A model generated the notes under the pieces. That model was given only the letters and a program-made list of their open reading frames with translations, did no database searches and was not told where the DNA came from. DNA of 64,000 nucleotides. It comes from Nitrospirota bacterium (lineage in GTDB: Bacteria > Nitrospirota > UBA9217). Positions 1,232 to 31,445 of the stretch are shown one piece after another. The position numbers and the translations under genes were made by a program. The stretch's first letter is position 1, and each line of letters opens with the position of its first letter. The stretch covers positions 96,001 to 160,000 of the forward strand of contig CAWFSF010000006.1 in assembly GCA_963818475.1 (NCBI GenBank), given 5' to 3'.

Positions 1232-1240
1232 GAGCTCGCG

Positions 1241-9962: not shown

Positions 9963-9978
9963 CTAAAGAATAAAATTC

Positions 9979-10130
9979 TTCTCAAAATGGCAAGAAAGTT
10001 TACCACGAAGAACACGAAGCGCGCGAAGTTAAAATCAATATTTTGATTTTGTCTTTTTCAACTTTTTCATGATCTTCGTGCCCTTCGTGGTGAAAAGACT
10101 TTTTGGCTCCGCCTTGAGAAGTTCTTGGTC
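9979..10130. repeat. Palindromic element with CACGAAG 9-nt-period core
   Basis: ACCACGAAGAACACGAAGCGCGCGAAG ... TTTCATGATCTTCGTGCCCTTCGTGGT inverted arms inside an outer TTCTCAA / TTGAGAA pair. Confidence 0.7.
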
Positions 10131-10202
10131 CTGTCTGTGGTGGATTTTGAAATACGTGCACCTGCGCTGATGTACTTTCCGGCCAGGCCCGTATCGAGGG
10201 AC

Positions 10203-11795: not shown

Positions 11796-11851
11796 GCGTA
11801 TGTTGGGACCCTGCGGTTAAATTCTAACATTACGCCGGAAGGCGGGGATAG

Positions 11852-13006: not shown

Positions 13007-13033
13007 CGCGGACGAAAAAGCGAGGTGGAGGAC

Positions 13034-14035
13034 ATGCTCAACATCGGGGTCATCGGATACGGGTATTGGGGGCCGAACATCGTGAGGAACTTCAGCGCCC
13101 TTGACGGGGCAACCGTGGAGTGCATCTGCGACGGCAATGCCCAGTCGCTGGACCGCGCCCGCAAGGCCTATCCGCAGATATGTTTGACCCAGGACTGCGG
13201 CGAGGTCCTCAATGCGACGAACATCGATGCCGTGGCGGTCATTACGCCGGTCTCGACCCACTACGAGCTGGCAAAACGCGCGCTCCTGAACGGGAAGCAT
13301 GTCTTTGTCGAGAAGCCGTTCACGGCTACGGTCGCCCAGGCGGAAGAGCTTATCGAGATCGCGGAGCGCAGGAAGCTCATCATTATGGTTGACCATACGT
13401 TCATCTTCACCGGGGCCGTGCGCACGATCAAGCGACTGGTCCAGGAAAAAGCGCTCGGCGACCTGTACTACTATGATTCAGTCCGCGTGAACCTGGGTTT
13501 GTTCCAGCGCGATGTGAATGTCATCTGGGACCTCGCGCCCCACGATTTTGCGGTCATGGACTATTTGATCGACGAAAAACCGGCGTCCGTGACAGCCTGC
13601 GGAAAGGCCCACGTCAACGGTTTGGAGGATACCGCCTATATAACGGCGCATTTCAGCAACAACATGATCGCCCATTTCAATGTCAACTGGCTTTCTCCGG
13701 TCAAAGTGAGAACGACCCTGATCGGCGGTGAAAAAAAGATGCTGGTCTGGAACGACCTGGAGGCGGATGAGAAAATCAAGATCTACGACAAGGGTGTGGA
13801 GATCAAGAACCGCGAGAGCGATTACAAGCTGCGCGTCAGCTACCGGTCGGGTGACATGTATGCTCCGAAGGTGGAGCATATCGAAGCACTGAAGCGTGAG
13901 GCCGAGTATTTTCTGTCCTGCGTAACAACGGGCGAACGCCCGGATAATGACGGCCAGGCGGGGCTGCGGGTGGTGAAACTGCTTGACGCCTGCAGCCAGT
14001 CTGTGAGGCAGGAAGGGAAAGCGATAGCCGTATGA
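13034..14035 (+). CDS. Gfo/Idh/MocA oxidoreductase (nucleotide-sugar dehydrogenase, WbpB/WlbA-like role)
   Basis: GVIGYGYWGPN, GKHVFVEKP, DLAPHD; GGAGG before ATG 13034; adjacent to acetyltransferase and aminotransferase. Confidence 0.85.
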   Translation: MLNIGVIGYGYWGPNIVRNFSALDGATVECICDGNAQSLDRARKAYPQICLTQDCGEVLNATNIDAVAVITPVSTHYELAKRALLNGKHVFVEKPFTATVAQAEELIEIAERRKLIIMVDHTFIFTGAVRTIKRLVQEKALGDLYYYDSVRVNLGLFQRDVNVIWDLAPHDFAVMDYLIDEKPASVTACGKAHVNGLEDTAYITAHFSNNMIAHFNVNWLSPVKVRTTLIGGEKKMLVWNDLEADEKIKIYDKGVEIKNRESDYKLRVSYRSGDMYAPKVEHIEALKREAEYFLSCVTTGERPDNDGQAGLRVVKLLDACSQSVRQEGKAIAV

Positions 14036-14511
14036 CCTATCTCTGCATCGCCGACGATGTGAAGCTCGGCGCGAACGTCAAACTGGCGCAGTTCATCAAT
14101 CTCTACGGATGCACGATCGGAGACAACACGCGGATCGGTACGTTCGTGGAAGTGCAGAAGAACGCGTTCATCGGCAGGAACTGCAAGATACAGAGCCACA
14201 CGTTCATCTGCGAAGGCGTGACCATCGAGGACGATGTGTTTGTCGGGCACGGGGTGACGTTCGTGAATGACAAGTATCCGAGGGCGACCAATGGCGGCGG
14301 CGCTTTGCAAAATGAAGCGGACTGGAAGGTCCTGCCGACGATCGTGAAGCGAGGCGCTTCCATCGGGTCGGGGACGACCATACTCGGCAACGTGACGATC
14401 GGGGAAAAGGCAATCGTCGGATCGGGAAGCGTGGTAACCAGGGATGTGCCTCCCGGCACTATCGTCGCGGGAAACCCTGCGAGCGTCTTAAGGAGGATCA
14501 ACCATGAATAG
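14032..14511 (+). CDS. Hexapeptide-repeat N-acetyltransferase (WbpD/WlbB-like)
   Basis: NLYGCTIGDNTRIG, CKIQSHTFICEGVTIEDDVFVGHGV, VAGNPA. Confidence 0.88.
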   Translation: MTYLCIADDVKLGANVKLAQFINLYGCTIGDNTRIGTFVEVQKNAFIGRNCKIQSHTFICEGVTIEDDVFVGHGVTFVNDKYPRATNGGGALQNEADWKVLPTIVKRGASIGSGTTILGNVTIGEKAIVGSGSVVTRDVPPGTIVAGNPASVLRRINHE

Positions 14512-15712
14512 TCAGGTGCCATTTCTGGATCTTGTTGCACCGCACATCGAGGAAGAGGCGGCATTCATCGAGGTGCTGCGGGGCTCCCTGCGGACAGGAA
14601 GGTTTATCGGCGGACCTCTCGTGGAAGGCTTTGAAGAGCAGTTCGCGGCATTTTGCAATACCAAATACTGTGTCGGCGTCGGAAGCGGCACTGATGCGCT
14701 CCGCTTTGCATTGATCGCTGCGGGAGTCAGGGCGCAGGACATCGTGATCACCGTCCCGAACACCTTTATTGCCACGACCGAAGCGATCTCCCAGGCGGGA
14801 GCCGTTCCGGTGTTCGTCGATATCGACCCAAGGACGTATAACATGGACCCGGAACGGTTGCGGGAGTTCCTGGCCGTGCAGTGCGAAACCGCGCGGGAGA
14901 CCGGAGAGACCACCCACCGAACAACCGGACGCAGGGTTTCCTGCGTCATACCCGTGCACCTTTACGGACAAGCCGCGGACATGGACAGCCTCCGGAAGAT
15001 CGCGGAAGACCACCGTCTGATCCTTATCGAGGACGCGTGCCAGGCCCATGGCGCTGAATATTACTCGAAACAAGAGGGACGGTGGCTGAAAGCGGGCAGC
15101 ATGAGCGCCGCGGGCGCGTTCAGCTTTTACCCGGGAAAGAATCTTGGCGCCTGCGGAGAAGCGGGGGCGCTCACCACGAACGACGAAAAGATCGCCAACA
15201 CGGCAAGGATGCTGCGGGACCATGGTCAGGCGCAAAAATATATCCATGATCTGGAAGGATATAACGGAAGGCTCGATGCGATCCAGGCGGGATTTCTTCA
15301 GGTCAAGATGAAACGGCTGTCCGGCTGGAACGAGAGCCGCAGAAAGCACGCCGGGCGCTATGCATTTCTGCTGCGGGACCTTGATGGCGTTACGCTGCCC
15401 TTTGAGCCGGAGTGGAGCAAAGGCGTCTACCATCTCTATGTCATCAGGACGAAGGACCGGAATGCGCTGCAGAAGTTTCTGCTGGAGCGGAACATCAGCA
15501 CTGCGCTTCACTATCCGATACCGCTGCACCAGCAGAAGGCCTATCAGGGATCTGAGTGCAGCCTTGGCGTTTTTCCCGAAGCCGAGGCCGCGGCCCGGGA
15601 AATCCTGTCCCTCCCCATGTTCCCAACGCTGACCGAACAGCAGCAGGACCGCGTCGCCGCCGGAATACGGGAATTCTCCTGCCGGCGCCTCGGCGTTACC
15701 GCTGCGGCGTAG
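14504..15712 (+). CDS. DegT/DnrJ/EryC1/StrS PLP aminotransferase
   Basis: VGSGTDAL, PVHLYGQ, IEDACQAHG, FSFYPGKNLGACGEAG. Confidence 0.92.
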   Translation: MNSQVPFLDLVAPHIEEEAAFIEVLRGSLRTGRFIGGPLVEGFEEQFAAFCNTKYCVGVGSGTDALRFALIAAGVRAQDIVITVPNTFIATTEAISQAGAVPVFVDIDPRTYNMDPERLREFLAVQCETARETGETTHRTTGRRVSCVIPVHLYGQAADMDSLRKIAEDHRLILIEDACQAHGAEYYSKQEGRWLKAGSMSAAGAFSFYPGKNLGACGEAGALTTNDEKIANTARMLRDHGQAQKYIHDLEGYNGRLDAIQAGFLQVKMKRLSGWNESRRKHAGRYAFLLRDLDGVTLPFEPEWSKGVYHLYVIRTKDRNALQKFLLERNISTALHYPIPLHQQKAYQGSECSLGVFPEAEAAAREILSLPMFPTLTEQQQDRVAAGIREFSCRRLGVTAAA

Positions 15713-15855
15713 TACCGGCGTAATCCCTCGCGGTGGCGGTCTGCGACGTGCGAGTACGATGGGATCCATGATGAGCGAACGATTCCGCTGCGACATCATC
15801 CAGGGGTCGGAACAACAAGTGAAGTTTCTGTTACGGAGCAGGGCGGAGACGACAA

Positions 15856-17064
15856 ATGATTAAACCCTTTGAAAAACCGATCTATGTGACCAAACCGTTC
15901 CTGCCTCCCTTAGACGAGTTCTGCAAGGGCCTCGAAGAGATTTGGGAAAGCCGATGGCTGACCAATAACGGGCCGATTCTCCGGCGATTTACCCGTGAAC
16001 TGTGTAATGCCATGGAAACCGAGAATACCTGCCTCTTCAATAATGGTACGCTCGCCCTGCAGATAGCCCTGCAGGGCATGGGGATATCCGGCGAAGTCAT
16101 TACGACTCCCTACACATTCGTGGCAACGACCCACTCCCTGTTCTGGAACAAGATCCGGCCCGTTTTTGTCGATATCGAACCGGAATACTATACGATCGAT
16201 CCCGACAAGGTCGAGGCCGCGATCACTCCCTGGACGACCGCAATCCTGGCGGTCCATGTATACGGCCATCCTTGCAAGCTGGACCAGCTGGCCGACATCG
16301 CGCGCAGGCACAATATCAGGCTTATTTATGATGCGGCCCACGCCTTTGGCGTAAAAGTGGGCAACAGGCCGATCTCCCACTTCGGCGACCTGAGCATGTT
16401 CAGTTTCCATTCGACGAAACTGTTCCATTCCATTGAAGGAGGCATGCTCGTGTTTCGTGAAGCAGGATTAAAAGGCCTGTTTGATTATCTCAAAAACTTT
16501 GGGATCAAGAACGAGGTTGAAGTGGTCATGCCCGGCACCAACGCAAAAATGAACGAAATGCAGGCACTGATGGGCCTTCATGTTCTTAAATATCTCGACA
16601 GCGCCATTCAAAAGCGGGAAAAGATCACCGCTGTCTATCGCAGCAGGCTCAGGGAAATTCCGGGCATTCGCCTTGCTCCGCCCCTGTCCGGCGACATCCG
16701 GTACAACTACGCGTACATGCCGATCGAAGTGGATGAAAAGGAGTTCGGTATGAGCCGCGATGCGCTGTATGAAAAAATGAAGGAATGGAACGTGTATTCG
16801 CGTCGCTACTTCTATCCCCTGATCTGCGATTACCAGTGTTATCGCAGCATTCCGGTGAACGGTTCCTTGCCTGTCGCGCGTCGAGTGGCCGACCGCATAT
16901 TGACACTCCCGATTTATGACAGTCTTGAACTGTCTGATGTCGAGACCATCTGCGATATCATCATATTTCTTCATACGAGAAGCAGGTCTTTTCCGGAAAG
17001 AGCGTGGGCTCGGAGCGAGTCGGACGCGCTGGTGTCCAAGTGGCCCGACGCAAGAGTCGGATGA
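15856..17064 (+). CDS. DegT-family aminotransferase, VioA-like (dTDP-4-amino-4,6-dideoxyhexose)
   Basis: IYVTKPFLPP, WLTNNGP, NGTLAL, YDAAHAFG, SFHSTKLFHSIEGG, GTNAKMNE, RRYFYP. Confidence 0.88.
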   Translation: MIKPFEKPIYVTKPFLPPLDEFCKGLEEIWESRWLTNNGPILRRFTRELCNAMETENTCLFNNGTLALQIALQGMGISGEVITTPYTFVATTHSLFWNKIRPVFVDIEPEYYTIDPDKVEAAITPWTTAILAVHVYGHPCKLDQLADIARRHNIRLIYDAAHAFGVKVGNRPISHFGDLSMFSFHSTKLFHSIEGGMLVFREAGLKGLFDYLKNFGIKNEVEVVMPGTNAKMNEMQALMGLHVLKYLDSAIQKREKITAVYRSRLREIPGIRLAPPLSGDIRYNYAYMPIEVDEKEFGMSRDALYEKMKEWNVYSRRYFYPLICDYQCYRSIPVNGSLPVARRVADRILTLPIYDSLELSDVETICDIIIFLHTRSRSFPERAWARSESDALVSKWPDARVG

Positions 17065-17230
17065 ACCTTAAAAAAGCACTTGGACACGGATAAACACGGA
17101 TAAGAGCCGGATAACGGCGGATTATTTCTTTATAAGAGGTTCACCCAATAGGTGAATGTTTTGCTTTAGAATTTATCCGCGTTAATCAGATGTTTCCGAT
17201 TCTTCCGTGTCCAAATGCCGTTTTTAGGAT
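17064..17230. mobile_element. Palindromic MITE-like element, copy 2 (CACGGATAA core)
   Basis: Near-identical to 4311-4478; GGATGAA occurs at both boundaries (17059-17065, 17227-17233), consistent with a short target duplication. Confidence 0.8.
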
Positions 17231-17280
17231 GAAGAAGTTTTCTCTGCAAGGGGAACGGGGAGCAGCGAGCGGGGGCGAAA

Positions 17281-17952
17281 ATGAAGAAGGTAGTCGTATT
17301 TGGGAACGGCAGATGGGCTGAGCTGATGTATTGCTATCTTACGCAGGATTCCTCCTTCGAACTTGCCGGTTTTACGGTCGACCCTCAATATATCAGGGAA
17401 AATACGCTATTCGGATTACCCGTTGTGCCCTTCGACCAGGTCGAAGTGGTCTTCCCCCCGACGGAGTACTCAATGCTTGTCGCTCTCAGCTATCAGAGGA
17501 TTAACCGGCTGAGGGAAGAGAAGTACTTTCAGGCCAAGTCCAAGGGATATGATCTGATCAGCTATGTCTCTTCAAAGACGACGACGTGGCCCGACCTGGT
17601 TATCGGTGACAACTGCCTCGTGTCGGAGAATTCCAGCCTCAACCCGTTTGTCAAGATCGGGAACAATGTCACCATCGGCGCGTGCGTCCTGATCGGTCAT
17701 CATTCGGTGATAGGGGACCATTGCTTCATCTCTTCCGGCACCGTGATTCTTGGCAGTGTCACCGTTGGACCATATTGCCTGCTGGGGCCGAATTCTACAG
17801 TCAAGGAAAAAGTCACGGTCGCCAGAGATTGCATCATCGGCTGCGGAGTTACCATCACAAAAGATACCCGGGAAAAGGGAGTGTATGTCGGGCGATCCCC
17901 CGAACTCCTGACGAAACCGAGTGATGCGTTGAAAGCGTGGCTCACGTGGTGA
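17281..17952 (+). CDS. NeuD/PglD-like sugar acyltransferase (left-handed beta-helix)
   Basis: VVVFGNG N-terminal domain, NRLREEKY, hexapeptide repeats IGDNC/IGNNV/IGHHSVIGDHC. Confidence 0.85.
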   Translation: MKKVVVFGNGRWAELMYCYLTQDSSFELAGFTVDPQYIRENTLFGLPVVPFDQVEVVFPPTEYSMLVALSYQRINRLREEKYFQAKSKGYDLISYVSSKTTTWPDLVIGDNCLVSENSSLNPFVKIGNNVTIGACVLIGHHSVIGDHCFISSGTVILGSVTVGPYCLLGPNSTVKEKVTVARDCIIGCGVTITKDTREKGVYVGRSPELLTKPSDALKAWLTW

Positions 17953-17989
17953 GCCTGCACATCGTGCTCGAAGAAAAAGGAGAGGGATA

Positions 17990-19147
17990 ATGCCTGCGGA
18001 GTCCTCGGTGGAAGAACGGTTGATCGTAGCCGTGGTGAAAGATTTTGCATCGAAGCGTTTGTCGCTGGTCAGTCAAGATGCAGATGCTCTGGGGACATGG
18101 CCTAAAGAAACGGTGAAGGAAATGGCTCGCCTGGGATTGTTCGGGGCCATCATCCCTCAGGCATATGGCGGGTCCTTCAGCAGCTATCACCTGTACTACA
18201 GGATAATTAACGAAATAGCCAAAGTATGCGCTTCGCATGCACTTATCCTGCTGTCTCATTCCTTCTGTTCCCATGTCATCGCCGCCTTTGGCACGAGTGA
18301 TCAAAAAGAAAAGTTGTTGCCGAAAATGGCAACGGGGGCATATCTCGGCGCGGTTGCGATGACTGAACCCGATTCGGGCTCGGATCTCGCATCGGTCCGG
18401 ACAAGCGCCACGCCCTGTCAGGAAGGGTTTCTCCTGAAGGGTCATAAACAATTTATTACAAACGGCGGCAACGCTGACGTGATCGTGGTTCTCGCATCCA
18501 CCCTTTCCAAAAACCCTCTCTTCAATAAGAGTTTGATCATAGTTGAGAAACCTCTTGCGGGCTGCACGACGGGAATGAGCGAGAGCAAGATGGGTTTTCG
18601 CGCAGTGGATACTACTGAATTATTCTTTGACGATGTGATCGTAAAAAAAGAGGCGCTCCTCGGCAAGGAAGGACAGGGCCTGCTCCTGATTATGAAGGGC
18701 CTTAATTGTTCCCGATTGGCCAGCGCGGCGCTAGCTCTCGGGATTGCCCAGTCGGCGCATGGGGAAGGGGCGCGCTATGCCAGACAGCGCAAACAATTCG
18801 GGAAACCGATCTCCGAATTTCAGGCGATTCAGCAATACCTGGCGGACAATGAAACTGAATTGGAATGCGCGCAGCTCTTGTTGAATAATGCCGCGATCAA
18901 ACAGGATCGTGGAGAGAATACGGAAGCATATTCCGCAATGACCAAGTATTACTGCTCGGAAACCGCGCTCCGCGTTGTGACACGGGCAATGCAGATTCAT
19001 GGCGCCTATGGCTACATCAAGAGGCTCCCCATTGAGAGACACTATCGGGATGTGAGGCTCTGTACGATCATCGAGGGGACCAGTGAGGTCTTGCGCCCCC
19101 TCATTGCGAAGCATGCCTGTGGAAGTATCGCGACAGGTCTTTCATGA
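17990..19147 (+). CDS. Acyl-CoA/acyl-ACP dehydrogenase
   Basis: AMTEPDSGSD, GHKQFITNG, KMGFRA, RKQFGKPISEFQAIQ, QIHGAYGY, YRDVR, IIEGTSE (catalytic Glu). Confidence 0.92.
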   Translation: MPAESSVEERLIVAVVKDFASKRLSLVSQDADALGTWPKETVKEMARLGLFGAIIPQAYGGSFSSYHLYYRIINEIAKVCASHALILLSHSFCSHVIAAFGTSDQKEKLLPKMATGAYLGAVAMTEPDSGSDLASVRTSATPCQEGFLLKGHKQFITNGGNADVIVVLASTLSKNPLFNKSLIIVEKPLAGCTTGMSESKMGFRAVDTTELFFDDVIVKKEALLGKEGQGLLLIMKGLNCSRLASAALALGIAQSAHGEGARYARQRKQFGKPISEFQAIQQYLADNETELECAQLLLNNAAIKQDRGENTEAYSAMTKYYCSETALRVVTRAMQIHGAYGYIKRLPIERHYRDVRLCTIIEGTSEVLRPLIAKHACGSIATGLS

Positions 19148-19215
19148 ATGCGGACCATCACCTGCACTGAAGATACCGAGCGCTGAAGAGCAGCCGTTTT
19201 ATCAACGAGGCATAC

Positions 19216-20763
19216 ATGGACAAGCGTCTCACATTGCTCTGCCCTAATCTGGACCCGCGCAACGATCAAGCTGCAATCTATGAAAAGGGCCGGACCATAA
19301 CTTTCGGCGAGTTGGCCGGAGGAGTCGGCAACTTATCTGACAATATCGTGAGCGCTGGCGCAGTTCGGGGCAGTCGAATCGCTCTCTGCTACGACAATAC
19401 GGCTGCTTTTGTTTACGGGTATTTGGCTATCCTCGGAGCAGAGTGCATCCCGGTGCTCCTGAGCCCTAACCTCCCCGCCGAGAAGTTATCGTACATTCTC
19501 GCTGATAGTGGCGCAGCCGGCATGATGTGCGAATCCAGAGTAGTGGGCAGGATACCGTCGTACCCCCGCGGCATGAAATTTCTATTTTCCCCTGATGTCC
19601 GTGAGGCTGCAAGTCTGCGCGGGATCGCGGTCTACTCTTTCGACGAAGGAATCAGCTCGAAGAGGATCCCCGTTGACAACGGCGCTGTCCAGGAGCGGTA
19701 CGCTGAAGCGCAGCCTCAAAACGCTCACTCAATTAGTGCAGTTATTTATACGTCCGGGACGACCGGTAAACCGAAGGGAGTTATGCTCAGCGAGGTGAAT
19801 CTGGAACTTGCTACGGCGACGATTATCCGGCACCTGGGTCTTACCTCGGAGGATTCATGTCTTGTTGCTATGAGTTTTGCGCACTGCGCCGGCCTGCTGC
19901 ACATGCTTGCACACTTGCGTGCCGGGGCAAAACTGGTCACCGGTGAAACAGTTGCATTGATCGGACAATTTCTGGCCGCGATAAAAAAACATCGAGTGAC
20001 CATCTTCCCCGCGGTGCCGTCGTTCTTTACGCTCTTGACGAAACATCCCAAACAGAAGGTGAAACCCTATCTGAGCACCGTGCGCGCCGTTGAATCTTCC
20101 AGTGCGATGATAAACAGTTCGTTGATTCGAGAAGTCGCAGATCTTTACCCCTGCGCTACGCTGTTCAACACCTATGGATTGACCGAGGCTCCAAGAACTA
20201 CCTACGCGGTCGTGGATCCTTCCGATGCAACTACCTGTCTCTCTGTGGGGCATGCGACTTCCGGCGTCGCTGTAAAAGTTGTCAATGACCATTCCCAGCG
20301 GTGCCTGCCGTACGAAGAAGGAGAGATTGTCGTGGACGGGGCCAATGTGGCATTGGGGTATTGGAACAATTCTGAGAAGACCTCTGCGGCATTCGGGCCT
20401 CTCGGCTTCAGGACCGGCGATATCGGCTACACGGACCACAAGGGACTTTTGTACCTGAAGGGAAGGCGAGACGATATGATCAAGATCGGCGCCGAAGCCG
20501 TGTCCCCGCATGAGGTAGAAGAGGTCATCGGATCGCATCCGGGTGTTGCGGACGTGTTGGCCTATGGAGTAGAGGATGATATCCGGGGCTCGATAATACA
20601 TGTGCAGGTAGTTCGCAAAGACGGGTCTATTGACGAAGAAGCTCTATTTGATTATTGCTGCGGGAGGCTTGAGAAGCATAAGCTCCCTTCCCATATCAGC
20701 TTCCATGATTCCATCGCCGTGGAAGAATCAGGAAAGCCAAAGAGGAACAAAGCGACAGTATGA
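19216..20763 (+). CDS. Class I adenylate-forming enzyme (acyl-ACP ligase-like)
   Basis: YTSGTTGKPKGV, TYGLTEA, FRTGD, GRRDDMIK, ESGK. Confidence 0.88.
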   Translation: MDKRLTLLCPNLDPRNDQAAIYEKGRTITFGELAGGVGNLSDNIVSAGAVRGSRIALCYDNTAAFVYGYLAILGAECIPVLLSPNLPAEKLSYILADSGAAGMMCESRVVGRIPSYPRGMKFLFSPDVREAASLRGIAVYSFDEGISSKRIPVDNGAVQERYAEAQPQNAHSISAVIYTSGTTGKPKGVMLSEVNLELATATIIRHLGLTSEDSCLVAMSFAHCAGLLHMLAHLRAGAKLVTGETVALIGQFLAAIKKHRVTIFPAVPSFFTLLTKHPKQKVKPYLSTVRAVESSSAMINSSLIREVADLYPCATLFNTYGLTEAPRTTYAVVDPSDATTCLSVGHATSGVAVKVVNDHSQRCLPYEEGEIVVDGANVALGYWNNSEKTSAAFGPLGFRTGDIGYTDHKGLLYLKGRRDDMIKIGAEAVSPHEVEEVIGSHPGVADVLAYGVEDDIRGSIIHVQVVRKDGSIDEEALFDYCCGRLEKHKLPSHISFHDSIAVEESGKPKRNKATV

Positions 20764-21704
20764 TCATCGACTTCCACAGTCATATCATAGAGGATTCCTG
20801 GCTGCCGGAACGATGGTGGGCATGGCTGACAGAATTCTACAATTCAAGGAGACGGAGTCCGCTGTTGCCGCACTTCAAAACTGCCGCCCTCAGGGAGCAG
20901 CTCTGTGATGGCGACGGGAGCAAGTTGTTGGCTGCGATGGAGGATGCGCAGATCGACAGGAGCATTGTACTGCCTCTGGATTGGGGGCTCTTGTTCGGGG
21001 AGCCTCCTGTGTCTATTGAAGAGCAACACAACCGGATCGCGGAAATAGCGGAGAGAAGCAACGGAAAGATCGTTCCCTTCGTCGGCGTGGATCCCCGAAG
21101 AAAAGGCGCCCTTGAACTGATCAAATATTGCTTGAAGGATTGCAGGATGCAGGGGATAAAGTTATATCCGGCTGCAGGATATGATCCAAGTAATAAGGCC
21201 TATCGCAGCATCTTTGAGGCTGCATTGCAATATGACGTTCCGGTGCTGGTTCACACTGGATATTCATTTGGTCCATTCCAGAGTGAATATTGCGGACCCG
21301 GCGTGTTGGACTGCCTCTGTGCAAGGTATCCTGATATCACCTTTGTTGCCGCGCACCTGGGTTCCGGCAACCTCGAGCAACTCTGCTGGCTGGGATATGC
21401 GAAGCCAAATCTGTATGCTGATTGCTCCCTGATGCAGATAAGGGCACGTCAGAACTATTCGGAGTTTGCCGGCAATCTCCGTCTGGCGTGCGACTTGTTC
21501 GGAAGCCAGCGCATTCTCTTCGGCACGGATTGGCCCTTTTCCCAGAGTGTGATGAAGAATGACGAATATGTGAATGCATTCAGGAAACTGAAGTCCGTAG
21601 ACAGCTCCGGCACGACGTTTGTTGGATACGAAGTGAAGCAGCTCCTGGGAGGAACCGCAGCAAGCTTGCTGTCCAGAAAAAAGGGAGGTTGTGATGACAA
21701 ATGA
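20760..21704 (+). CDS. Amidohydrolase family 2 metalloenzyme
   Basis: IIDFHSH, GIKLYP, PVLVHTG, AAHLG, ILFGTDWP. Confidence 0.85.
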   Translation: MIIDFHSHIIEDSWLPERWWAWLTEFYNSRRRSPLLPHFKTAALREQLCDGDGSKLLAAMEDAQIDRSIVLPLDWGLLFGEPPVSIEEQHNRIAEIAERSNGKIVPFVGVDPRRKGALELIKYCLKDCRMQGIKLYPAAGYDPSNKAYRSIFEAALQYDVPVLVHTGYSFGPFQSEYCGPGVLDCLCARYPDITFVAAHLGSGNLEQLCWLGYAKPNLYADCSLMQIRARQNYSEFAGNLRLACDLFGSQRILFGTDWPFSQSVMKNDEYVNAFRKLKSVDSSGTTFVGYEVKQLLGGTAASLLSRKKGGCDDK

Positions 21705-21813
21705 GAGCTTTGCCAGGGAGGTTGCGATGACGACTGTGCCTCTTGCCAGGGAAGCTGCGATGACACCTAAGCCTCTTGCTCGAGAGGTTGTGGTGCCAAA
21801 TGAGACTCTTGCT
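21682..21813 (+). repeat. Four 33-bp tandem repeats each containing an SD-like sequence and start codon
   Basis: GGGAGGTTGTG-ATG (21694), GGGAGGTTGCG-ATG (21727), GGGAAGCTGCG-ATG (21760), GAGAGGTTGTG-GTG (21793). Confidence 0.85.
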
Positions 21814-22038
21814 GAGGAGATTTTTATCTATATCAAGAACGAATTGAATCATTCAAGTGATTTTGATATTGCGGCAAGTATCGTGAAAGAAGGGATTGTT
21901 GATTCCCTGGGGATACTGACCTTAGTGTCCTTCCTGGAAAAGCGATATCACGTGGAAATCGATTTTGAAGAGATCACCCCGGATAACTTTAAAAATGTTG
22001 ATGCGATCGCACGGTTCATAAAGAAACTGCTTGGATGA
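21694..22038 (+). CDS. Acyl carrier protein with N-terminal 11-aa repeats
   Basis: GIVDSLGIL phosphopantetheine motif, EITPDNFKNVDAIARFI. Confidence 0.88.
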   Translation: MTNESFAREVAMTTVPLAREAAMTPKPLAREVVVPNETLAEEIFIYIKNELNHSSDFDIAASIVKEGIVDSLGILTLVSFLEKRYHVEIDFEEITPDNFKNVDAIARFIKKLLG

Positions 22039-22065
22039 GTCGCACCATAGAGCAGAAAGCGGATT

Positions 22066-24048
22066 ATGGAAGCCACAAGAGAAATTTACTGGAACGTAGG
22101 GCGCAGCGTCGCGGGGCCCATGTACCTGGCGACTGTATTGACTGTTGTGTTCTTCGCATGGGGGATAGGGAGGAGGTTGTCGCTCTATCGCATAGGGACG
22201 GCAATCAACCGTTTTGACCGCTGCGACGAACGATTCAGGCGACTCATTGTCGAAGTGCTTGGGCAGAAGAAGGTAGCCCGGGAACGGGACGGCGGACGTT
22301 TCCACGCCCGGCTCTTCTGGACGATGGGCACTCTGTTCGCCGGAACCCTGCTGGTGATGATACAGGATGATCTCCTTGCGCCCTTCACCGGGATAAACAT
22401 TCTCAGCGGCGCATTTTACAAGGTGTTCTCGCTGGTTCTGGATATGGCCGGTCTGGCCGCGTTCCTGACGTTGGGGGGGCTTTCCTACCGACGTTTCATC
22501 AGGAAGCCGGAGGGGTTGGAGACCGTCAGCAAGGATTATGTGGTCCACCTGCTCCTCTTTGCCGTACTTATCACGGGCTTCCTGCTGGAAGGTGCGCGAA
22601 TCGCCGTCACTGAACAGCGACAAAACCCCGGACTGGCACTCTTTTCCCCTGTCGGTTATGCCGCCGCACACCTGTTCACCGGCTTCGATAAACAGTCGAT
22701 CCTCACGACGCATAAAGACCTCTGGTGGGTCCACTTCGCCCTGACCATCGGCATTATCGGTGCCATTCCCTTCACAAAACTGCGGCACGTCGTCACCACC
22801 AGTGCAAACGCCTTCTTCGCACCATTCGAGCCAATGGGATCGATCGCCACTATAAATCTTGAAGCCGAGGAGATCGAGCAGTATGGCGCTGCAGAGGTCA
22901 CCGGCCTCTCCTGGAAAGATATCTTCGATGCCGACGCCTGCACCGGATGCAAGCGCTGCCAGGACCACTGTCCCGTTTCAGCCACCGGCAAGCCGCTGTC
23001 CCCCATGAAACTGATCAAACAAATAGGCGAGGCCGCTGAGAACAATACTGATGCAGGGCTGATAGAAACCATCGGCCGGGAAGCCCTCTGGTCCTGCACC
23101 ACCTGCGGTGCATGCCAGGATATTTGTCCCGCCAATGTAGAGCATGTGAACAAGATCATCGAGATGCGCCGCAACCTGGTCCTTATGCAGGGTGCTTTTC
23201 CCGGCGAAGAGGTGCGCAGCGCGATGAACAACATGGAGGTGAACGGCAACCCCTTTGGTTTGGACTTTACGGGGCGTGGTGAATGGGTCGACGACCTCCC
23301 CGTGATCCTGATGAGAGATAGCGTGGAAGTCGACATTCTCTACTTCGCCGGCTGCTATGCTTCGTTTGACAAACGGAACCAGGAGGTGGCCAGAAACTTC
23401 GTGAGGATCTGCGCCGCCGCAGGGGTCAGGGTCGGCATTCTCGGCAAAGAGGAGAACTGCTGCGGTGAGCCGGTCCGCAAGCTCGGCAACGAATACCTCT
23501 ACCAGATGCTGGCAGCGCAAAACATAGAACTGATCAAGGAGTACGGAGTGAAAAAAATAGTTACCACCTGTCCTCACTGCTTCAACACCCTGGCACGGGA
23601 TTACAAAGACCTGGGGCTCGATCTTCCGGTGGAACACTATTCCACCTTCGTCGCCCGGTTGCTGAAGGAAGAGCGGTTGATGCTTGCCCCTGAGCAATTC
23701 GATTTCACCTACCACGACTCCTGTTACCTGGGCCGCTATCAGGATATTACCGACGAGCCGCGCATGGTGCTCCGGATGGCAGGCGGGAGATTAACGGAAA
23801 TGACGAAGTCCGGCTATGATAGTTTTTGCTGTGGCGCCGGCGGCGGTCGGATCCTTGCCGAGGAGAAGATCGGCGACCGGATCAATGTGAGGCGGATTCA
23901 AATGGCGAAAGAGACCGGCGCTCCGCTCCTCGTTTCCAACTGCCCTTTTTGCCTCACCATGTTCGAGGACGGGATCAAGATGGCTGGTTGCGAAGGGGAA
24001 CTGGTGATAAAAGACCTGGCGGAGGTCGTGGCCGAGAGAATAGCATAA
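22066..24048 (+). CDS. Membrane Fe-S oxidoreductase (NarI-like TM domain + 2x[4Fe-4S] + two CCG domains; FadF/ETF:menaquinone oxidoreductase-like)
   Basis: Multiple TM helices, TKLRH, CTGCKRCQDHCP, CTTCGACQDICP, NCCG, TTCPHC, YHDSCYLGR, FCCGAGGG, CPFC. Confidence 0.9.
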   Translation: MEATREIYWNVGRSVAGPMYLATVLTVVFFAWGIGRRLSLYRIGTAINRFDRCDERFRRLIVEVLGQKKVARERDGGRFHARLFWTMGTLFAGTLLVMIQDDLLAPFTGINILSGAFYKVFSLVLDMAGLAAFLTLGGLSYRRFIRKPEGLETVSKDYVVHLLLFAVLITGFLLEGARIAVTEQRQNPGLALFSPVGYAAAHLFTGFDKQSILTTHKDLWWVHFALTIGIIGAIPFTKLRHVVTTSANAFFAPFEPMGSIATINLEAEEIEQYGAAEVTGLSWKDIFDADACTGCKRCQDHCPVSATGKPLSPMKLIKQIGEAAENNTDAGLIETIGREALWSCTTCGACQDICPANVEHVNKIIEMRRNLVLMQGAFPGEEVRSAMNNMEVNGNPFGLDFTGRGEWVDDLPVILMRDSVEVDILYFAGCYASFDKRNQEVARNFVRICAAAGVRVGILGKEENCCGEPVRKLGNEYLYQMLAAQNIELIKEYGVKKIVTTCPHCFNTLARDYKDLGLDLPVEHYSTFVARLLKEERLMLAPEQFDFTYHDSCYLGRYQDITDEPRMVLRMAGGRLTEMTKSGYDSFCCGAGGGRILAEEKIGDRINVRRIQMAKETGAPLLVSNCPFCLTMFEDGIKMAGCEGELVIKDLAEVVAERIA

Positions 24049-24050
24049 AA

Positions 24051-24827
24051 ATGAAGATTCTTATCTGCATTAAACAGGTTCCTGATAGGGAGTCAAGGTT
24101 CAAACCGAACGCCGAGGGTGTCTGGTACGACGAGGCAGATCTTGCCTGGCGGTTGAACGAATACGACGAATACGCCGTGGAACAGGCTGTGCAGCTGAAA
24201 GAACAACTAGGCAATGCTCCCGAGTTGACCGTCCTCTCCATCGGCCCGGACCGGGCGCGGGAGGCTATCAAAAAGGCGCTGGCCATGGGCTGCGACCTCG
24301 GCGTGCATGTCCAGGATCCGGGAGCGCTGCTCAAGGACCCCTGGCAGATCGCCTCAATAATTGCCGCGTACGCAAAAGACCGGGGCTTTGCCCTGATCTT
24401 CACCGGCATGCAGTCCGAAGACGGGGGCTCAGCCCAGGTAGGCGTTACCGTGGCGGAGTTGCTTGGCTATGCCTGCACTACCACCGTGGTCGGTTTCGAC
24501 TATGCCGATGGCACCATCACCGCTAAGCGTGAGCTTGAGGGAGGGACCAAAGGGGTGGTGAAATTGAAGACACCAGCACTGCTCACCTGCGAGTTGGGAC
24601 TCAACGTACCCCGTTACCCGACTCTCCCTAACATCATGAAGACCAGGAAGAAAGAGATTAAGGCAATTCCTGTGTCGTCGCTCTTGGATGACGGGCCGCT
24701 TATGATCACATCGATGTTCTATCCGCCGTTCAAAAAAAGCAGAGGGATCGTCCTCGATGGTGATGTGGCTGCGATGGCAGACCAGTTGGTGGGGATACTC
24801 AAACAAAAGACCCCGGTGCTGCGGTAG
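24051..24827 (+). CDS. etfB: Electron transfer flavoprotein beta subunit
   Basis: MKILICIKQVPD, NEYDEYAVEQA, ALAMGCD, GMQSEDG, LNVPRYPTLPNIMK. Confidence 0.93.
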   Translation: MKILICIKQVPDRESRFKPNAEGVWYDEADLAWRLNEYDEYAVEQAVQLKEQLGNAPELTVLSIGPDRAREAIKKALAMGCDLGVHVQDPGALLKDPWQIASIIAAYAKDRGFALIFTGMQSEDGGSAQVGVTVAELLGYACTTTVVGFDYADGTITAKRELEGGTKGVVKLKTPALLTCELGLNVPRYPTLPNIMKTRKKEIKAIPVSSLLDDGPLMITSMFYPPFKKSRGIVLDGDVAAMADQLVGILKQKTPVLR

Positions 24828-24835
24828 AGCGTGAA

Positions 24836-25768
24836 ATGAAACTCTTATTAGTTGCAGAATTTCGCGAAGGGAAACTCGTTGAATCAACGTATGAACTATT
24901 GGGTTTTGCACGGCTGTTTGAGGGAGAAGCTGTCATGGTGCTTGTCGGCAGCGACAGCCAGGTTCCTGAATACGGAGGACGTCTTTATCTTGCAGATGCC
25001 GTGAGATACGGCGAATACAACCCTGATCTGCACAAGAAACTGGTTCTCCAGGCAATTGAAATGGAAAAGCCCGACTACGTAGTCTTTCTCCATTCATCCT
25101 ATGGCTGGGATTTGGCGCCACGAGTGTCCGCCAGCCTCAGACTTGGCCAGATTTCGGGGATTATTGGATTGATAAATGGAGAATTCGAGGTGGGGTGCTG
25201 CAACGGAAAGATGCGACGCACTATCAAGCCGGCAAGCGGCAAGGCGGTGCTTACGATCCAAGCCGGGGCATTCCCGGTTATACGGCCGGGCGGCACCCCG
25301 CAGGTGCAGCGGCTGGATGCTGATGGCACGGGCACTGTCGAGTTTGTCGGTTATGAGCCTGCAGAACCAAAAGATGTAGACCTTGCCAAGGCCAGGGTGA
25401 TTGTTGCCGCCGGCCGGGGAGTTGGCGGGAAAGAAAACATGACGGCTATTGCTGCTCTAGCCAGGGCACTCGGCGGCGAATTGGGGGCCAGCAGGCCTGT
25501 CGTTGACGCCGGCTGGGCCGAACACAGCCAGCAGGTTGGTACTACCGGCCAGACAGTCAGTCCTCAGCTTTACATTGCCTGCGGCATCAGCGGCGCCATC
25601 CAGCACGTGGCCGGCATGAAAAAGTCCGAATTCATCGTCGCCATCAACAAAGACAGGGACGCCCCCATCGGCGACGTGGCCGATGTCCTCGTGGTGGCTG
25701 ACGTCATGCAGTTTGTTCCAGCGCTGGCCGCAAAGCTTCAATGCGTTGACTTGTTTTGTAGAGCCTGA
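24836..25768 (+). CDS. etfA: Electron transfer flavoprotein alpha subunit
   Basis: [58 protein letters not shown]. Confidence 0.95.
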
Positions 25769-25832: not shown

Positions 25833-27125
25833 ATGAAAAGAAATTTCAGCATGAAGTTCGCATTAACCTTGAGTTTCATCGTTATGGTCATGTTTTTATG
25901 GCTGGCAAGCAACGGCTGCAAAGGCCACACTGCACAATCGCCTGGGCAGCCAGATCAGCCGCAAATTGCAGTAAGCAGCCGTCAAATCGTAAACGGCAAT
26001 GTTGTTCTGAATAATATTTCGGAACAGACCGTCTCGCTCCAAAATACCGGATCAATCAGCCTTACTATCGGCCAGATCGCTCAGGCGAATACCCTGGCGC
26101 CTCCTTTCAGCATCGTAAGTGATTATTGCTCCGGGCGGGCAGTGCAGCCGTCGGCGGTATGCAGCTTCAAGGTTCAGTTCATGCCGACAGATCAGGGTTC
26201 TTTTAACGACAGCTTTGACATCCCCTCTAATGCCTCCAATGAAAATTCCGTGACCGTAGACGTTACCGGAAGCGGAAAAGCGCTCAGGGTCGCCATTAAC
26301 CAGGTCAATACCGACAGCTGTTCGACGGGGGTTCTTGAGCTTATAGTCAACGTAACTGATGAAAATAATACTCCCCTGCCAGGGTTGGCAGTCGGCGACT
26401 TTCAATTAAAGGAAAACGGCGTGCCGCAGTTACTCGAAAGCGTTTCACAAGTCCTGACGGCAGTACCAGTGTCAGTGGCTATGGTCCTCGATTACTCGGG
26501 AACCATGGAGAGCCAGGTACCGACCCTTGAAGCCGCATCTATCAATTTTATAGGGGACTTGAATCCGGATGATGAGGCTGCTGTCATCAAGTTTGAGGTG
26601 CTTCCCCAGTTGATGCAGGATTTCACGGGCAATAAGGCTGATCTGATAACGGCGATAAACACCGCGCCATCACAGATCGGAAGCGGCGGAACATATGTAT
26701 ACGACAGCCTCTGGTACGCTATTGAAAAAACATCAGTGAGACAGAAACACAAAGCGATTGTTGTAATTTCCGACGGCAGGGATGAGAACTCTCAGGGGGA
26801 GAAGGACGTTTCCATCAAAACGCTGGATGAGGTCATCGCATATGCAGCGGCAAATGACGTGACAATATACGCGGTAGGTCTGGGCGACGCTGAAGGGGTG
26901 GTCATGAACCGTCTGGCAAGCGAGACCGGAGGACAATATTATTATATGACAAATATCGATCAACTCACCGGTGTTTACCAGGCCATCAGTGACATTCTTT
27001 TCGGCCAATACTCGATAAAATACGTCTCTTCCCTGCATGGCAGCACTCCGATCACGCTGGAAATCAATGTGGCGGGCGGCGCTGATGAGGGCGCGGGCGT
27101 ATTGCAGACCGCAGGGTGCCCTTGA
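25833..27125 (+). CDS. Secreted/lipoprotein with Ig-like domain and VWA domain
   Basis: Hydrophobic leader ending SNG-C; LQNTG...C...C.F.V.F.P Ig-like unit; MIDAS-like LDYSGTM, GGTYVYDSL, VISDGRD, LASETGG. Confidence 0.82.
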   Translation: MKRNFSMKFALTLSFIVMVMFLWLASNGCKGHTAQSPGQPDQPQIAVSSRQIVNGNVVLNNISEQTVSLQNTGSISLTIGQIAQANTLAPPFSIVSDYCSGRAVQPSAVCSFKVQFMPTDQGSFNDSFDIPSNASNENSVTVDVTGSGKALRVAINQVNTDSCSTGVLELIVNVTDENNTPLPGLAVGDFQLKENGVPQLLESVSQVLTAVPVSVAMVLDYSGTMESQVPTLEAASINFIGDLNPDDEAAVIKFEVLPQLMQDFTGNKADLITAINTAPSQIGSGGTYVYDSLWYAIEKTSVRQKHKAIVVISDGRDENSQGEKDVSIKTLDEVIAYAAANDVTIYAVGLGDAEGVVMNRLASETGGQYYYMTNIDQLTGVYQAISDILFGQYSIKYVSSLHGSTPITLEINVAGGADEGAGVLQTAGCP

Positions 27126-27186: not shown

Positions 27187-28666
27187 ATGACGGACAACCT
27201 GCAACAGAAAACAGTTACGGCCCTCTCCTGGAGTTTTGTCGAGTCCATGGCGGCGCGGAGCGCGCAATTCGTCATCGGCATCATCCTGGCCCGGTTGCTG
27301 TTCCCCGAGCAGTTCGGTCTGATCGGGATGCTGATGATCTTCATGGCTGTATCGCAGGCATTTCTCGATAGCGGATTCGGCGCCGCGCTGATCCAGAAAC
27401 AGGAGATAACGCAAACCGACATTTGTTCGGTATTTTATTTTAATATACTGGTGGGATTGGCGGCTGCGGGCCTCTTGAGCCTCGCCGCCCCCTGGATAGC
27501 CGCTTTTTATAAGCAGCCTGTCCTGACCCCCCTGACGAGGGCGCTGTCTTTGACCCTTGTGATTAATTCCTTTGGCCTGATCCAGAATGTGCTGCTTACC
27601 AAGCAGATCAACTTCAAGACGCAGACCAAGGTAACCTTGATTGCGGGCGTATTGTCGGGCATCGTCGGCATTACTCTGGCCGTCCATGGATTCGGCGTGT
27701 GGAGCCTGGCTATCCAGCAGATATCCAGTGCTTTTGTCCGGACCGCTTGTCTCTGGTTCTTTAGTTCCTGGCGGCCGATCCTGATCTTCAGCTTCACCTC
27801 CCTGCGGGAACTGTTCGGTTTCGGATCACGACTGCTTGCTTCGGGCGTGCTTAACCAGACTTTTGACAACATCTATCTCGTGGTCATCGGAAGGCTGTTT
27901 TCGGCTGCTGACCTCGGGTTTTTTACGCGCGCCAAGACCTTGAATGATGTTCCTTCGCAATCGTTGTCGCAAATGGTGGGACGCGTCACCTTTCCCGTGT
28001 TCTCCACCATCCAGGACGATCGCGTGCGATTGAAAAGGGGATTGAAAAAGGCCCTGACCACGCTGGTTCTGGTGAATTTCCCCATGATGATCGGCCTGGC
28101 GATCGTCGCCCGTCCCCTGGTGCTGGTATTGTTGACGGATAAATGGGCACCCTCCATTCCCTATTTGCAGCTGCTCTGTGTTGCCGGCTTGTTGATTCCG
28201 CTCCAATCGATGAACCTGAATGTGCTGCAGGCCCTGGGACGGTCCGATCTGTTTCTCCGTCTGGAGATCGTCAAAAAAAGCTCTCATATGCGTCAACATC
28301 GCCATTACCTGGCGATGGGGCATATCCGCGATGATCTCCGGTATGATCGTCACTTCGATTATCTCGTATTATTTGAACAGTTATTACAACGGCATGCTGA
28401 TCGATTACTCCATCAAAGAACAGGTGCTTGACCTGCTCCCTTACCTCAGCATGGCCTCGCTGATGGGCTTTGCGGTTTATGCAGCCGGGTTGCTGCAGTT
28501 CCCCAGCCGGTGGTCCTTGCTTCTGACGCAGATTACCGCGGGCATCGTTGTTTATGTTTTCCTGTGCCGTGCATTTCGTTTAAAGGCTTTTATGGAGATC
28601 TGGCAAGCGGGTTTTAATATGATAAAAAAATCGGGATTCAAGATGATGGTTCAGGGGTTCAAGTGA
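27187..28666 (+). CDS. wzx: Polysaccharide flippase (WzxC-like); single frameshift in A7 run at about 28273-28279
   Basis: LARLLFPEQFGLIG, FLDSGFGAALIQK, GFGVWSL, DNIYLVVIGR, VTFPVFS, GRSDLFLRLEIVKK, continuing KALICV... in ORF 28220-28666. Confidence 0.88.
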
Positions 28667-29930: not shown

Positions 29931-30311
29931 ATGAAATATCATCTTCTTGACCTGCTCTGTTGTCCCTCGTGTGGAAATCAATTAATACTGAATCCATTTG
30001 AAGAAGGTACCAATGAATCGGGTAATTCAGAGCAGTCGATGACCTCGCCTCGATGCAGCAAATATTGCGGATTAAAAAACATTTCGATAGAAGGTGAAGA
30101 TGCCGGCAGGAAACAGTTCAGGTTTGATTGCATAACATGTTATAAAAAAGAAATCTTGGAAGGGATAATGTCATGCACATGTGGAAACGTGTTTCCAGTA
30201 ACCGGCTGCGTACCGCGCATGGTAAGCGGCAACTTAGAGGCTTATCCGGAGTTTGTTGAGAAAAACAAAGATAAGCTGATGGGTTTATCTTCACGAATAG
30301 GAGTTCATTAA
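29931..30311 (+). CDS. Trm112-like Cys-rich zinc-ribbon protein
   Basis: LLDLLCCPSC...EILEGIMSCTCGNVFPVTGCVPRMV with an inserted CSKYC...CITC segment. Confidence 0.7.
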   Translation: MKYHLLDLLCCPSCGNQLILNPFEEGTNESGNSEQSMTSPRCSKYCGLKNISIEGEDAGRKQFRFDCITCYKKEILEGIMSCTCGNVFPVTGCVPRMVSGNLEAYPEFVEKNKDKLMGLSSRIGVH

Positions 30312-30312
30312 C

Positions 30313-31308: not shown

Positions 31309-31445
31309 AATGGTGAGTTATTTGTGACTTTCAGAGCTTAAAAGGTCCGCTCTCTCGGACCAGCATAGATATATCTTTGGTGTCTCTTGGACTTCGAGTT
31401 GAAAACCTAACATTTGACTTATTCCAATCAGGAAACTGGTAAGAA

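Follow-up and report, generated by a model that had tools for sequence, protein, structure and literature searches.

A putative carrier-protein acyl-tailoring cassette with a borrowed electron-transfer module in a Nitrospirota polysaccharide locus

A 64,000-nucleotide stretch of a Nitrospirota genome (the window; contig CAWFSF010000006.1, positions 96,001–160,000 of the forward strand, assembly GCA_963818475.1, lineage UBA9217) carries, inside a Wzx-type glycan locus, nine closely packed open reading frames (ORFs; 15856–25768, all on the + strand) whose identities are established by the ORF list together with Pfam and NCBIfam matches. A first-pass annotation made from the letters alone had described nine contiguous genes within a glycan locus, and its coordinates and family assignments are all borne out. 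The genes encode a sugar aminotransferase and an N-acyltransferase, then a four-gene core (acyl-CoA dehydrogenase (ACAD), adenylating ligase, PF04909 amidohydrolase and carrier protein), and lastly a trio comprising a membrane iron–sulphur (FeS) oxidoreductase and the two subunits of an electron-transfer flavoprotein (ETF), EtfB and EtfA. The cassette is real, rare and uncharacterized; a search of open-access PMC and bioRxiv literature, supplements aside, returned no description of such a gene combination. The explanation that we favour, with modest confidence, is that of a modular thiotemplate cassette feeding sugar N-acylation, in which the ACAD would be re-oxidized by a recruited ETF/FeS trio. 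The nine genes are as follows.

15856–17064, + strand: DegT/DnrJ/EryC1 sugar aminotransferase (PF01041, 317 bits; closest NCBIfam model DesI, 309 bits, under its cut-off of 650)
17281–17952, + strand: PglD/PerB/VioB-like left-handed β-helix N-acyltransferase (hexapeptide transferase; TIGR03570, 149.3 bits)
17990–19147, + strand: short-chain (butyryl-CoA dehydrogenase-like) ACAD-fold flavoenzyme (Pfam ACAD N, M and C domains)
19216–20763, + strand: adenylating ligase (AMP-binding plus AMP-binding_C)
20760–21704, + strand: PF04909 (ACMSD/LigJ/LigW-type) metal-dependent TIM-barrel enzyme (Amidohydro_2, 95 bits)
21760–22038 (ORF open from 21691), + strand: type II carrier protein with a DSLG serine (weak NCBIfam acyl carrier protein (ACP) matches, best 3e-8)
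22066–24048, + strand: membrane oxidoreductase of 660 amino acids, NarI-like with two [4Fe-4S] and two CCG elements, DUF224/EMO-type, a putative ETF:menaquinone oxidoreductase (Pfam CCG, 121 bits; Fer4 families; Nitrate_red_gam)
24051–24827, + strand: EtfB (Pfam ETF, 147 bits; 63–69% identical to relatives)
24836–25768, + strand: EtfA, 310 amino acids, without a ferredoxin domain (ETF_alpha plus ETF)

In the proposed pathway, the ligase would load a non-amino carboxylic acid, probably a short-chain one, onto the stand-alone type II carrier protein, and the butyryl-CoA-dehydrogenase-like ACAD would desaturate the tethered acyl group at C2–C3. The PF04909 enzyme would then modify the acyl group, a Michael-type hydration to a hydroxyacyl group being favoured; with the O-methyltransferase of related loci not found in the genome, the product would keep a free hydroxyl or stay unsaturated. 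It would pass to the PglD/PerB/VioB-like N-acyltransferase, which would acylate a 4-amino-4,6-dideoxyhexose supplied by the DesI-like aminotransferase, and the acylated sugar would enter a Wzx-dependent polysaccharide. The ACAD would be re-oxidized by a non-bifurcating EtfAB acting with the NarI/HdrD-like FeS oxidoreductase in the membrane, with menaquinone as the electron acceptor, and the trio would represent an accessory module inserted between the carrier-protein gene and the flippase gene wzx. The carrier-protein dependence of the ACAD and of the amidohydrolase, the order of reactions, the acceptor sugar and the electron route are what we infer.

The genes are tightly arranged. From the N-acyltransferase (NeuD-like) gene to wzx, neighbouring genes are separated by 2 to 68 bp or overlap, and the ligase and amidohydrolase ORFs share 4 nucleotides. 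Between the carrier-protein gene and wzx all genes lie on a single strand with gaps of 2–64 bp, in which no terminator-like site was found on the + strand; a promoter scan gave the result expected of shuffled sequence and is hence uninformative.

Conservation of the four-gene core

The conserved order of the core is established by comparison with other loci (loci, genomes and contigs carry L, G and C numbers below). Pattern scans supplied 160 loci, 80 each from a set with a single genome for every species and from JGI metagenomes, and all were compared with the window proteins by tblastn. The neighbourhood is kept only in loci with at least 42% amidohydrolase identity. ACAD, ligase, amidohydrolase and carrier protein follow one another in this order in six other loci with enough sequence (L011, L012, L013, L111, L114 and the near-identical pair L112/L113, counted as one locus), where the amidohydrolase and the ACAD are each 43–71% identical to their window counterparts; three short contigs (L109, L110 and L115) show the amidohydrolase followed by the carrier protein. 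The 4-nucleotide stop/start overlap recurs in L012 and L111. Directly upstream of the ACAD, at least four loci (L012, L013, L111 and L114) carry an O-methyltransferase (PF00891 plus PF08100), which is not in the window and of which the L012 query found no copy in the window's own genome (91% complete). Judged by gene order, the four-gene core is a portable unit.

Three of the other core loci have a glycan-type setting. L012 encodes a DegT aminotransferase (70% identical to that of the window by tblastn), two unknown proteins, a NeuD-like transferase (55%), the O-methyltransferase, the core, a GNAT-like protein, Wzx (61%) and a family 2 glycosyltransferase (GT2; 40%). L011 holds a NeuD-like gene and the core in broken reading frames, and L111 has GT9 and GT4 glycosyltransferases upstream and GNAT and DUF2334 proteins downstream. 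The link to sugar genes drawn in the first-pass annotation is thereby upheld: homologues of the N-acyltransferase (51–55% identity) stand upstream of the core in both L011 and L012, which are the two loci nearest to the window, and the aminotransferase, Wzx and GT2 are also kept in L012. By this synteny the assignment to glycan N-acylation is well supported.

A side observation concerns the broken frames. The RF3 gene of the window's own genome (G000:C2:495649–497246) matches its G010 orthologue in three pieces, and the split RF3 and split L011 core genes suggest indel errors of the kind found in long-read metagenome-assembled genomes (MAGs).

Two further loci, L013 (a Desulfobacula MAG, 1–18668) and L114 (a metagenome contig, 1–18035), are polyketide synthase (PKS)-like, and L112/L113 was assigned to neither setting. 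Beyond the O-methyltransferase and core, both PKS-like loci carry a second carrier protein, a protein joining a ketosynthase (KS) to a carrier protein (and to a GNAT domain in some cases, KS-CP(-GNAT)), a ligase, a pyridoxal phosphate (PLP)-dependent decarboxylase of ornithine/diaminopimelate type and a BcrAD/BadFG ATPase. B12-radical-SAM enzymes number one in L013 and three in L114, and L013 alone adds a phosphopantetheinyl transferase (PPTase) and two 2-hydroxyacyl-CoA dehydratase (HGD-D) parts.

These gene sets, among which no sugar genes were seen, give a reason to ask whether the core supplies no sugar N-acyl group here and merely occupies a place in the glycan locus: its product might be a free acid or a starter unit of lipid or polyketide-like type, or its substrates might be CoA esters. 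The resemblance of the ACAD and ligase to CoA-dependent enzymes points the same way. We nevertheless regard this as distinctly unlikely. A PglD/PerB/VioB-like transferase precedes the core in the window, L011 and L012; the window and L012 have in addition the DegT aminotransferase, with Wzx and GT2 after the core; L111 has its glycosyltransferases upstream; and no KS, thiolase or lipid-synthesis gene was found among the window genes scanned for families (5840–42518 and 45406–46941). A β-oxidation set (thiolase, enoyl-CoA hydratase and 3-hydroxyacyl-CoA dehydrogenase) was likewise not found among those genes. The earlier argument against fatty-acid or polyketide synthesis holds within the window and fails for L013 and L114, where the core is joined to a KS-CP(-GNAT) protein. 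Likewise, the concern that such cassettes might occur mostly outside glycan loci is neither realized nor cleanly dispelled, with three glycan-type settings against two PKS-like ones.

Enzymes of the cassette and the predicted acyl group

On the sugar side, the aminotransferase at 15856–17064 probably makes a 4-amino-4,6-dideoxyhexose as acceptor. The solved proteins closest to the N-acyltransferase are PglD (6e-16), PerB (1.5e-12) and VioB (3.9e-10), all of them enzymes that acylate C4-amino sugars, and it is proposed to be the enzyme that transfers the tailored acyl group.

The ACAD has its catalytic glutamate within an IIEGTSE motif (residues 362–368), at the position used by short-chain acyl-CoA dehydrogenases (SCADs). 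Compared with solved structures it scores 246–270 bits against Bcd/SCAD enzymes and 146–165 bits against prolyl-carrier-protein dehydrogenases, and it matches the NCBIfam PigA and RedW models at 207 bits, below the family cut-offs. That it would act on a carrier-bound substrate is suggested by synteny. For the ligase, the nearest solved proteins are MenE and the oxalate-CoA, malonyl-CoA and feruloyl-CoA ligases, and its score against the amino-acid adenylation model TIGR01733 is 212 bits (cut-off 317). The sequence reads SFAHC at the A4-type motif, a position not aligned to a reference. Amino-acid adenylation (A) domains have FDxS (Asp235) where the ligase has FAHC, and their aspartate was not found in this reading. 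Because the ligase is nearest to MenE and the oxalate, malonate and feruloyl-CoA ligases and reads FAHC, a non-amino carboxylic acid is favoured as its substrate.

The carrier protein has no Pfam match at 1e-3. A profile built from eight orthologues retrieves peptidyl and acyl carrier proteins from the Protein Data Bank (PDB; 1.6e-16), including PltL (2.4e-12) and PigG (1.3e-10), and D48-S49 is invariant among the orthologues, the serine being the phosphopantetheine-attachment residue. Two PPTase (PF01648) matches were found in the own genome, neither of them in the window. The start of the gene is unusual in that it lies in a tandem repeat.

21682–21812, no strand: 33-bp unit repeated four times (Tandem Repeats Finder score 127), spanning the amidohydrolase stop and the carrier-protein start

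Every 33-bp unit holds a Shine–Dalgarno-like AGGGAGG and an ATG, and with them the ribosome-binding site and the start codon recur, in frame, from unit to unit. When opened from 21691, the ORF adds an N-terminal ARE(V/A)AMT..PL repeat that has no counterpart in the orthologous carrier proteins (82–92 amino acids).

The matches to PltL and PigG, both prolyl carrier proteins, together with the ACAD matches to PigA/RedW and the ligase match to the amino-acid adenylation model, raise the possibility that ligase, carrier protein and ACAD form a prolyl-to-pyrrolyl system of the PltF/PltL/PltE type, with pyrrole-2-carbonyl or another amino-acid-derived acyl group as the decoration. This is most improbable: the PigA, RedW and adenylation scores all fall under their family cut-offs, the ACAD reaches 270 bits with butyryl-CoA dehydrogenases against 146–165 with prolyl-carrier-protein dehydrogenases, and the ligase reads FAHC against the FDxS of amino-acid A domains and finds its best matches in fatty-acyl, MenE, oxalate and malonate ligases. 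A non-amino acyl group thus stays the favoured cargo.

The amidohydrolase conforms to the PF04909 pattern by Pfam, alignment, model and Foldseek, with a TIM barrel and an HxH, His, His and Asp set of metal ligands. Residues H6, H8, H165, H199, D257, R113 and R114 are invariant across 48 homologues, which also share a DPRR motif. The predicted structure (mean predicted local distance difference test score, pLDDT, of 94.4) retrieves LigY, LigJ and LigW in Foldseek at probability 1.0 (template-modelling (TM) scores of 0.6–0.68), and the neighbours by sequence or fold are LigY, LigJ, LigW, ACMSD and resorcylate decarboxylases, at 12–17% identity. Because the O-methyltransferase of related loci needs an acceptor hydroxyl, hydration is the favoured reaction. 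ThnN and BamU are amidohydrolases of anaerobic CoA-ester pathways whose function is given as not known in the passages of PMC12016498 and PMC2996986 that deal with them.

The amidohydrolase has about 75 homologues in a set of 5.8 billion proteins, most of them metagenome sequences without a name, and no orthologue was found in 40 relatives of the genome. A single-protein scan of genome contigs with the amidohydrolase returned nothing; the scan patterns were drawn from an alignment of 16 sequences, the 48 homologues differing too much for the purpose. In the wider family (29–40% identity, 150 loci) the neighbours are mixed, short-chain dehydrogenases/reductases being commonest (33 of the 146 loci with neighbours), followed by CxxCxxCC proteins, B12-radical-SAM enzymes, inositol monophosphatase and α/β-hydrolases, and provide no functional clue.

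One named pathway was considered and rejected. The FkbGHIJK family of methoxymalonyl-ACP cassettes is defined by an FkbH-like loader and a 3-hydroxyacyl-CoA dehydrogenase homologue, and neither an FkbH-like loader nor an FkbK-type 3-hydroxyacyl-CoA dehydrogenase is present in the window, L012, L013, L111 or L114.

Origin and role of the ETF/FeS trio

The FeS protein combines a NarI-like domain (PF02665, 32.6 bits, residues 111–248) and at least three hydrophobic segments (14–34, 116–139 and 156–182) with CX2CX2CX3C motifs at residues 292 and 344, CCG motifs at 465 and 588, and PF02754 in two stretches. The first-pass annotation had related it to NarI–HdrD-type fusions; its architecture is that of the DUF224-type EtfAB:quinone oxidoreductase of Syntrophomonas wolfei as portrayed in the relevant passages of PMC3582634. 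Its gene begins 27 bp after the carrier-protein gene and is followed after 2 bp by etfB, after a further 8 bp by etfA, and then by a 64-bp gap. The listed EtfB ORF starts at 23826, and the ATG at 24051 is the true start; the resulting N terminus, MKILICIKQVPD, is one that we take to be typical of EtfB. MqnA/D-family (menaquinone) genes were found in the own genome.

The origin of the trio is established by its orthologues. The FeS protein has full-length orthologues in five same-family genomes (62–65% identity) and a fragment of 241 residues (55%) in a sixth; EtfA orthologues, five of full length (66–69%) and one fragment in G013 (77%), come from these six genomes too. No orthologue was found in five same-genus genomes searched (65–92% complete). 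In the four orthologous regions examined (G010, G021, G012 and G018) an EtfB orthologue (63–69%) completes the trio; the G018 contig ends at the FeS gene. A distant long ACAD neighbours the trio in the other three, and the G021 order FadB-like, thiolase, long ACAD, FeS, EtfB, EtfA makes up a complete β-oxidation cluster closed by the trio.

Core loci elsewhere mostly do without it. The position between the carrier-protein gene and wzx is occupied in L012 by the GNAT-like gene, and five of the six other core loci have no ETF/FeS trio in their flanks. The exception is L111, where ETF and FeS genes are interleaved with the core in the order carrier protein, EtfB, O-methyltransferase, ACAD, ligase, amidohydrolase, carrier protein, EtfA, FeS. 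Because the Etf and FeS proteins of L111 are only 33–34% identical to those of the window against 55% for the ACAD (and 49% for the amidohydrolase), L111 represents an independent recruitment of ETF/FeS to the core, which supports a functional link between ACAD and ETF. As a control, FeS, EtfA and EtfB occur together in the flanks of none of 150 non-core amidohydrolase-family loci. Placement of the trio by chance is unlikely because of both the independent interleaving in L111 and this control.

The trio is hence no ancestral component of the cassette but an accessory module, linked in the family to long ACADs and, in the complete cluster, to β-oxidation. Its link to the cassette is plausible, with the module borrowed rather than dedicated. 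The 'dedicated' electron sink of the first-pass annotation is accordingly not supported, given the five core loci without the trio and the orthologues by long ACADs and β-oxidation genes (G021), and of the full arrangement that it described the conserved part is the ACAD–ligase–amidohydrolase–carrier protein unit and not the trio.

A further step would be to regard the trio as a general or β-oxidation electron sink brought in by a rearrangement, without any particular relation to the cassette, the ACAD using any available ETF while the cassette still decorates a sugar. The orthologous trios (62–69%) by long ACADs and the G021 cluster favour this, as do the core loci without nearby ETF/FeS genes and the FeS homologues encoded elsewhere in the genomes of L011, L012 and L013. 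The GC content at third codon positions of the FeS and EtfB genes (0.70–0.71) is nearer to that of upstream genes (0.71–0.78) than to that of the cassette (0.60–0.66), and the FeS protein is the only NarI–CCG fusion found in the own genome. Yet the trio lies in the same orientation as the cassette, 27 bp past the carrier-protein gene, before wzx and within the operon; L111 independently interleaves unrelated ETF/FeS genes with the core; the own genome (91% complete), with only three ACAD loci and three EtfA loci, yielded no counterpart orthologous to the long ACAD of the relatives; and searches of the five same-genus genomes (65–92% complete) retrieved no orthologue of the trio. A general sink is in our judgement unlikely, and recruitment of the trio to re-oxidize the cassette ACAD remains the preferred account.

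An unusual ETF arrangement was seen at G000:C2:2447–8018 (locus L108), where a 613-residue protein with a C-terminal ETF_alpha domain alone adjoins a 1,252-residue protein whose ACAD middle and C-terminal domains are placed towards the end, a large fusion pair.

Several observations weigh against the pathway as a whole. The ACAD is nearer to CoA-dependent enzymes than to known carrier-protein-dependent ones, and the TIGR03570 (NeuD/PglB/VioB) match of the N-acyltransferase, which covers model positions 1–199 of 202, lies just below the cut-off (149.3 against 160.8 bits). No enzyme of the PF04909 family is known to us to use a thioester substrate, and matches of the amidohydrolase to solved structures by sequence and fold do not separate hydratase, decarboxylase and C–C hydrolase. 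L013 and L114 put the same core in a PKS-like, non-glycan setting. Absence of the trio from most core loci means that its adjacency is not required, and from its place by long ACADs in G010, G021 and G012 the trio may yet work with ACADs other than that of the cassette. Elsewhere the own genome encodes a thiolase–crotonase–Hbd cluster (thiolase, enoyl-CoA hydratase and 3-hydroxyacyl-CoA dehydrogenase genes at C6:2146555–2149626) and a Bcd-like ACAD with an EtfA carrying an N-terminal Fer4 domain, a form matched in 23 of 24 family genomes. Finally, a search of sequencing runs listed no RNA run and only three DNA rows with 5–6% of words.

A more ambitious proposal holds that the decoration is made by carrier-protein chemistry coupled to anaerobic respiration, that the PF04909 enzyme acts on an enoyl thioester, and that the core is a portable unit put to glycan (window, L011, L012 and L111) or PKS-like (L013 and L114) use. 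We advance it tentatively and consider it doubtful in this full form. If true, it would provide the first thiotemplate substrate for the PF04909 branch, as a hydratase or decarboxylase on a carrier-bound enoyl thioester.

The remaining genes of the locus frame the cassette. On its upstream side are genes for an epimerase/dehydratase, another ligase, Bac_transf and a GFO–hexapeptide–DegT trio, and on its downstream side those for Wzx, glycosyltransferases of families GT2 and GT4, a polysaccharide deacetylase and a further flippase (Pfam). The second ligase and Wzx are as follows.

10125–11795, + strand: second adenylating ligase, exosortase-A-associated-like (TIGR03098, 407.5 bits; cut-off 592)
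27187–28431, + strand: Wzx-type flippase (Polysacc_synt_3, 319 bits; 61% identical to the L012 flippase), which marks a glycan backbone common with L012

The second ligase corresponds to the adenylation enzyme placed near 10203 in the first-pass annotation. Ligases 26–27% identical to it come after the core in L013, L111 and L114, followed in L013 and L114 by a PLP decarboxylase, none of which was seen among the window genes scanned. At 13025–15712, a GFO/IDH/MocA oxidoreductase, a small hexapeptide acetyltransferase and a DegT aminotransferase are consecutive, an arrangement similar to the WbpB/WbpD/WbpE pathway that leads to 2,3-diacetamido uronic acids. Between etfA and wzx, the gene at 25833–27125 encodes a 430-residue protein with Ig-like (HYDIN/VesB-type) and VWA domains that has no counterpart in L012 or in the ETF loci of relatives. 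From 30000 to 40000 the GC content falls to 0.42–0.48 across the GT2/GT4 block and two Pfam-less ORFs (34789–36057 and 36156–37601), and this low-GC block looks like a separately acquired portion of the glycan locus.

Comparison with known systems

Where amino sugars carry unusual N-acyl groups, these influence antigenicity, surface chemistry and recognition by phages; few pathways to such groups are known, most of them starting from CoA esters. The cassette would add a carrier-protein route to such groups that runs without oxygen and a new reaction context for PF04909 enzymes, and it would exemplify the recruitment of a catabolic EtfAB and DUF224-type oxidoreductase into a biosynthetic surface-glycan operon. 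With the same core in PKS-like clusters of sulphate-reducer MAGs, solving its chemistry once would annotate two kinds of locus; practical value is limited for now, all carriers being uncultured organisms.

In working principle the closest systems are the type II thiotemplate trios PltF/PltL/PltE, PigI/PigG/PigA and Bmp4/Bmp1/Bmp3, which are built from the same three separate folds. PltL and PigG work with ACAD-fold dehydrogenases, which oxidize a carrier-bound acyl group, and PDB entry 6cxt is presumably such an enzyme–carrier complex. The carrier protein of the window resembles PltL and PigG most and is likewise stand-alone, with a phosphopantetheine serine and a PPTase in the genome. In contrast to these trios, the window ACAD is nearer to butyryl-CoA dehydrogenases, with its glutamate at the SCAD position, and the ligase appears to lack the A-domain aspartate; the core adds a PF04909 enzyme, usually accompanied in related loci by an O-methyltransferase; and the product would go to a sugar N-acyltransferase or a KS rather than into a non-ribosomal peptide synthetase/PKS halogenation line. 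Transfer of an ACP-bound intermediate to an amino sugar has a precedent in the 4-amino-2-hydroxybutyrate (AHBA) pathway of butirosin.

A second parallel is the tetronate set of Vibrio cholerae O1, which includes an ACP-like and a ligase-like protein. It is not known to have an ACAD, PF04909 enzyme or ETF/FeS genes and employs reductase/dehydrogenase-type enzymes instead. As set out in the passages of PMC3441752 on this system, genes VC0248–VC0252 (wbeK–O) acylate perosamine, and the likeness lies in a dedicated multi-gene set within an O-antigen locus that provides an unusual N-acyl group for a 4-amino-4,6-dideoxyhexose.

The amidohydrolase shares its fold and its HxH...H...H...D pattern with the ACMSD/LigW/LigJ/LigY branch, and is set apart from it by low identity (12–17%), the invariant DPRR and its constant association with carrier-protein and ACAD genes. 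For the trio, the closest counterpart is S. wolfei Swol_0696–0698, in which, according to the portion of PMC3582634 concerned, a membrane FeS protein beside etfAB passes electrons from butyryl-CoA-dehydrogenase-type enzymes to menaquinone. The window FeS protein, with its NarI-like domain, two 4Fe-4S and two CCG elements and adjacent etfBA, is likened to Swol_0698 by architecture and not by sequence; unlike the S. wolfei genes, the window trio stands in a polysaccharide operon, behind a carrier-protein cassette, and not with catabolic genes.

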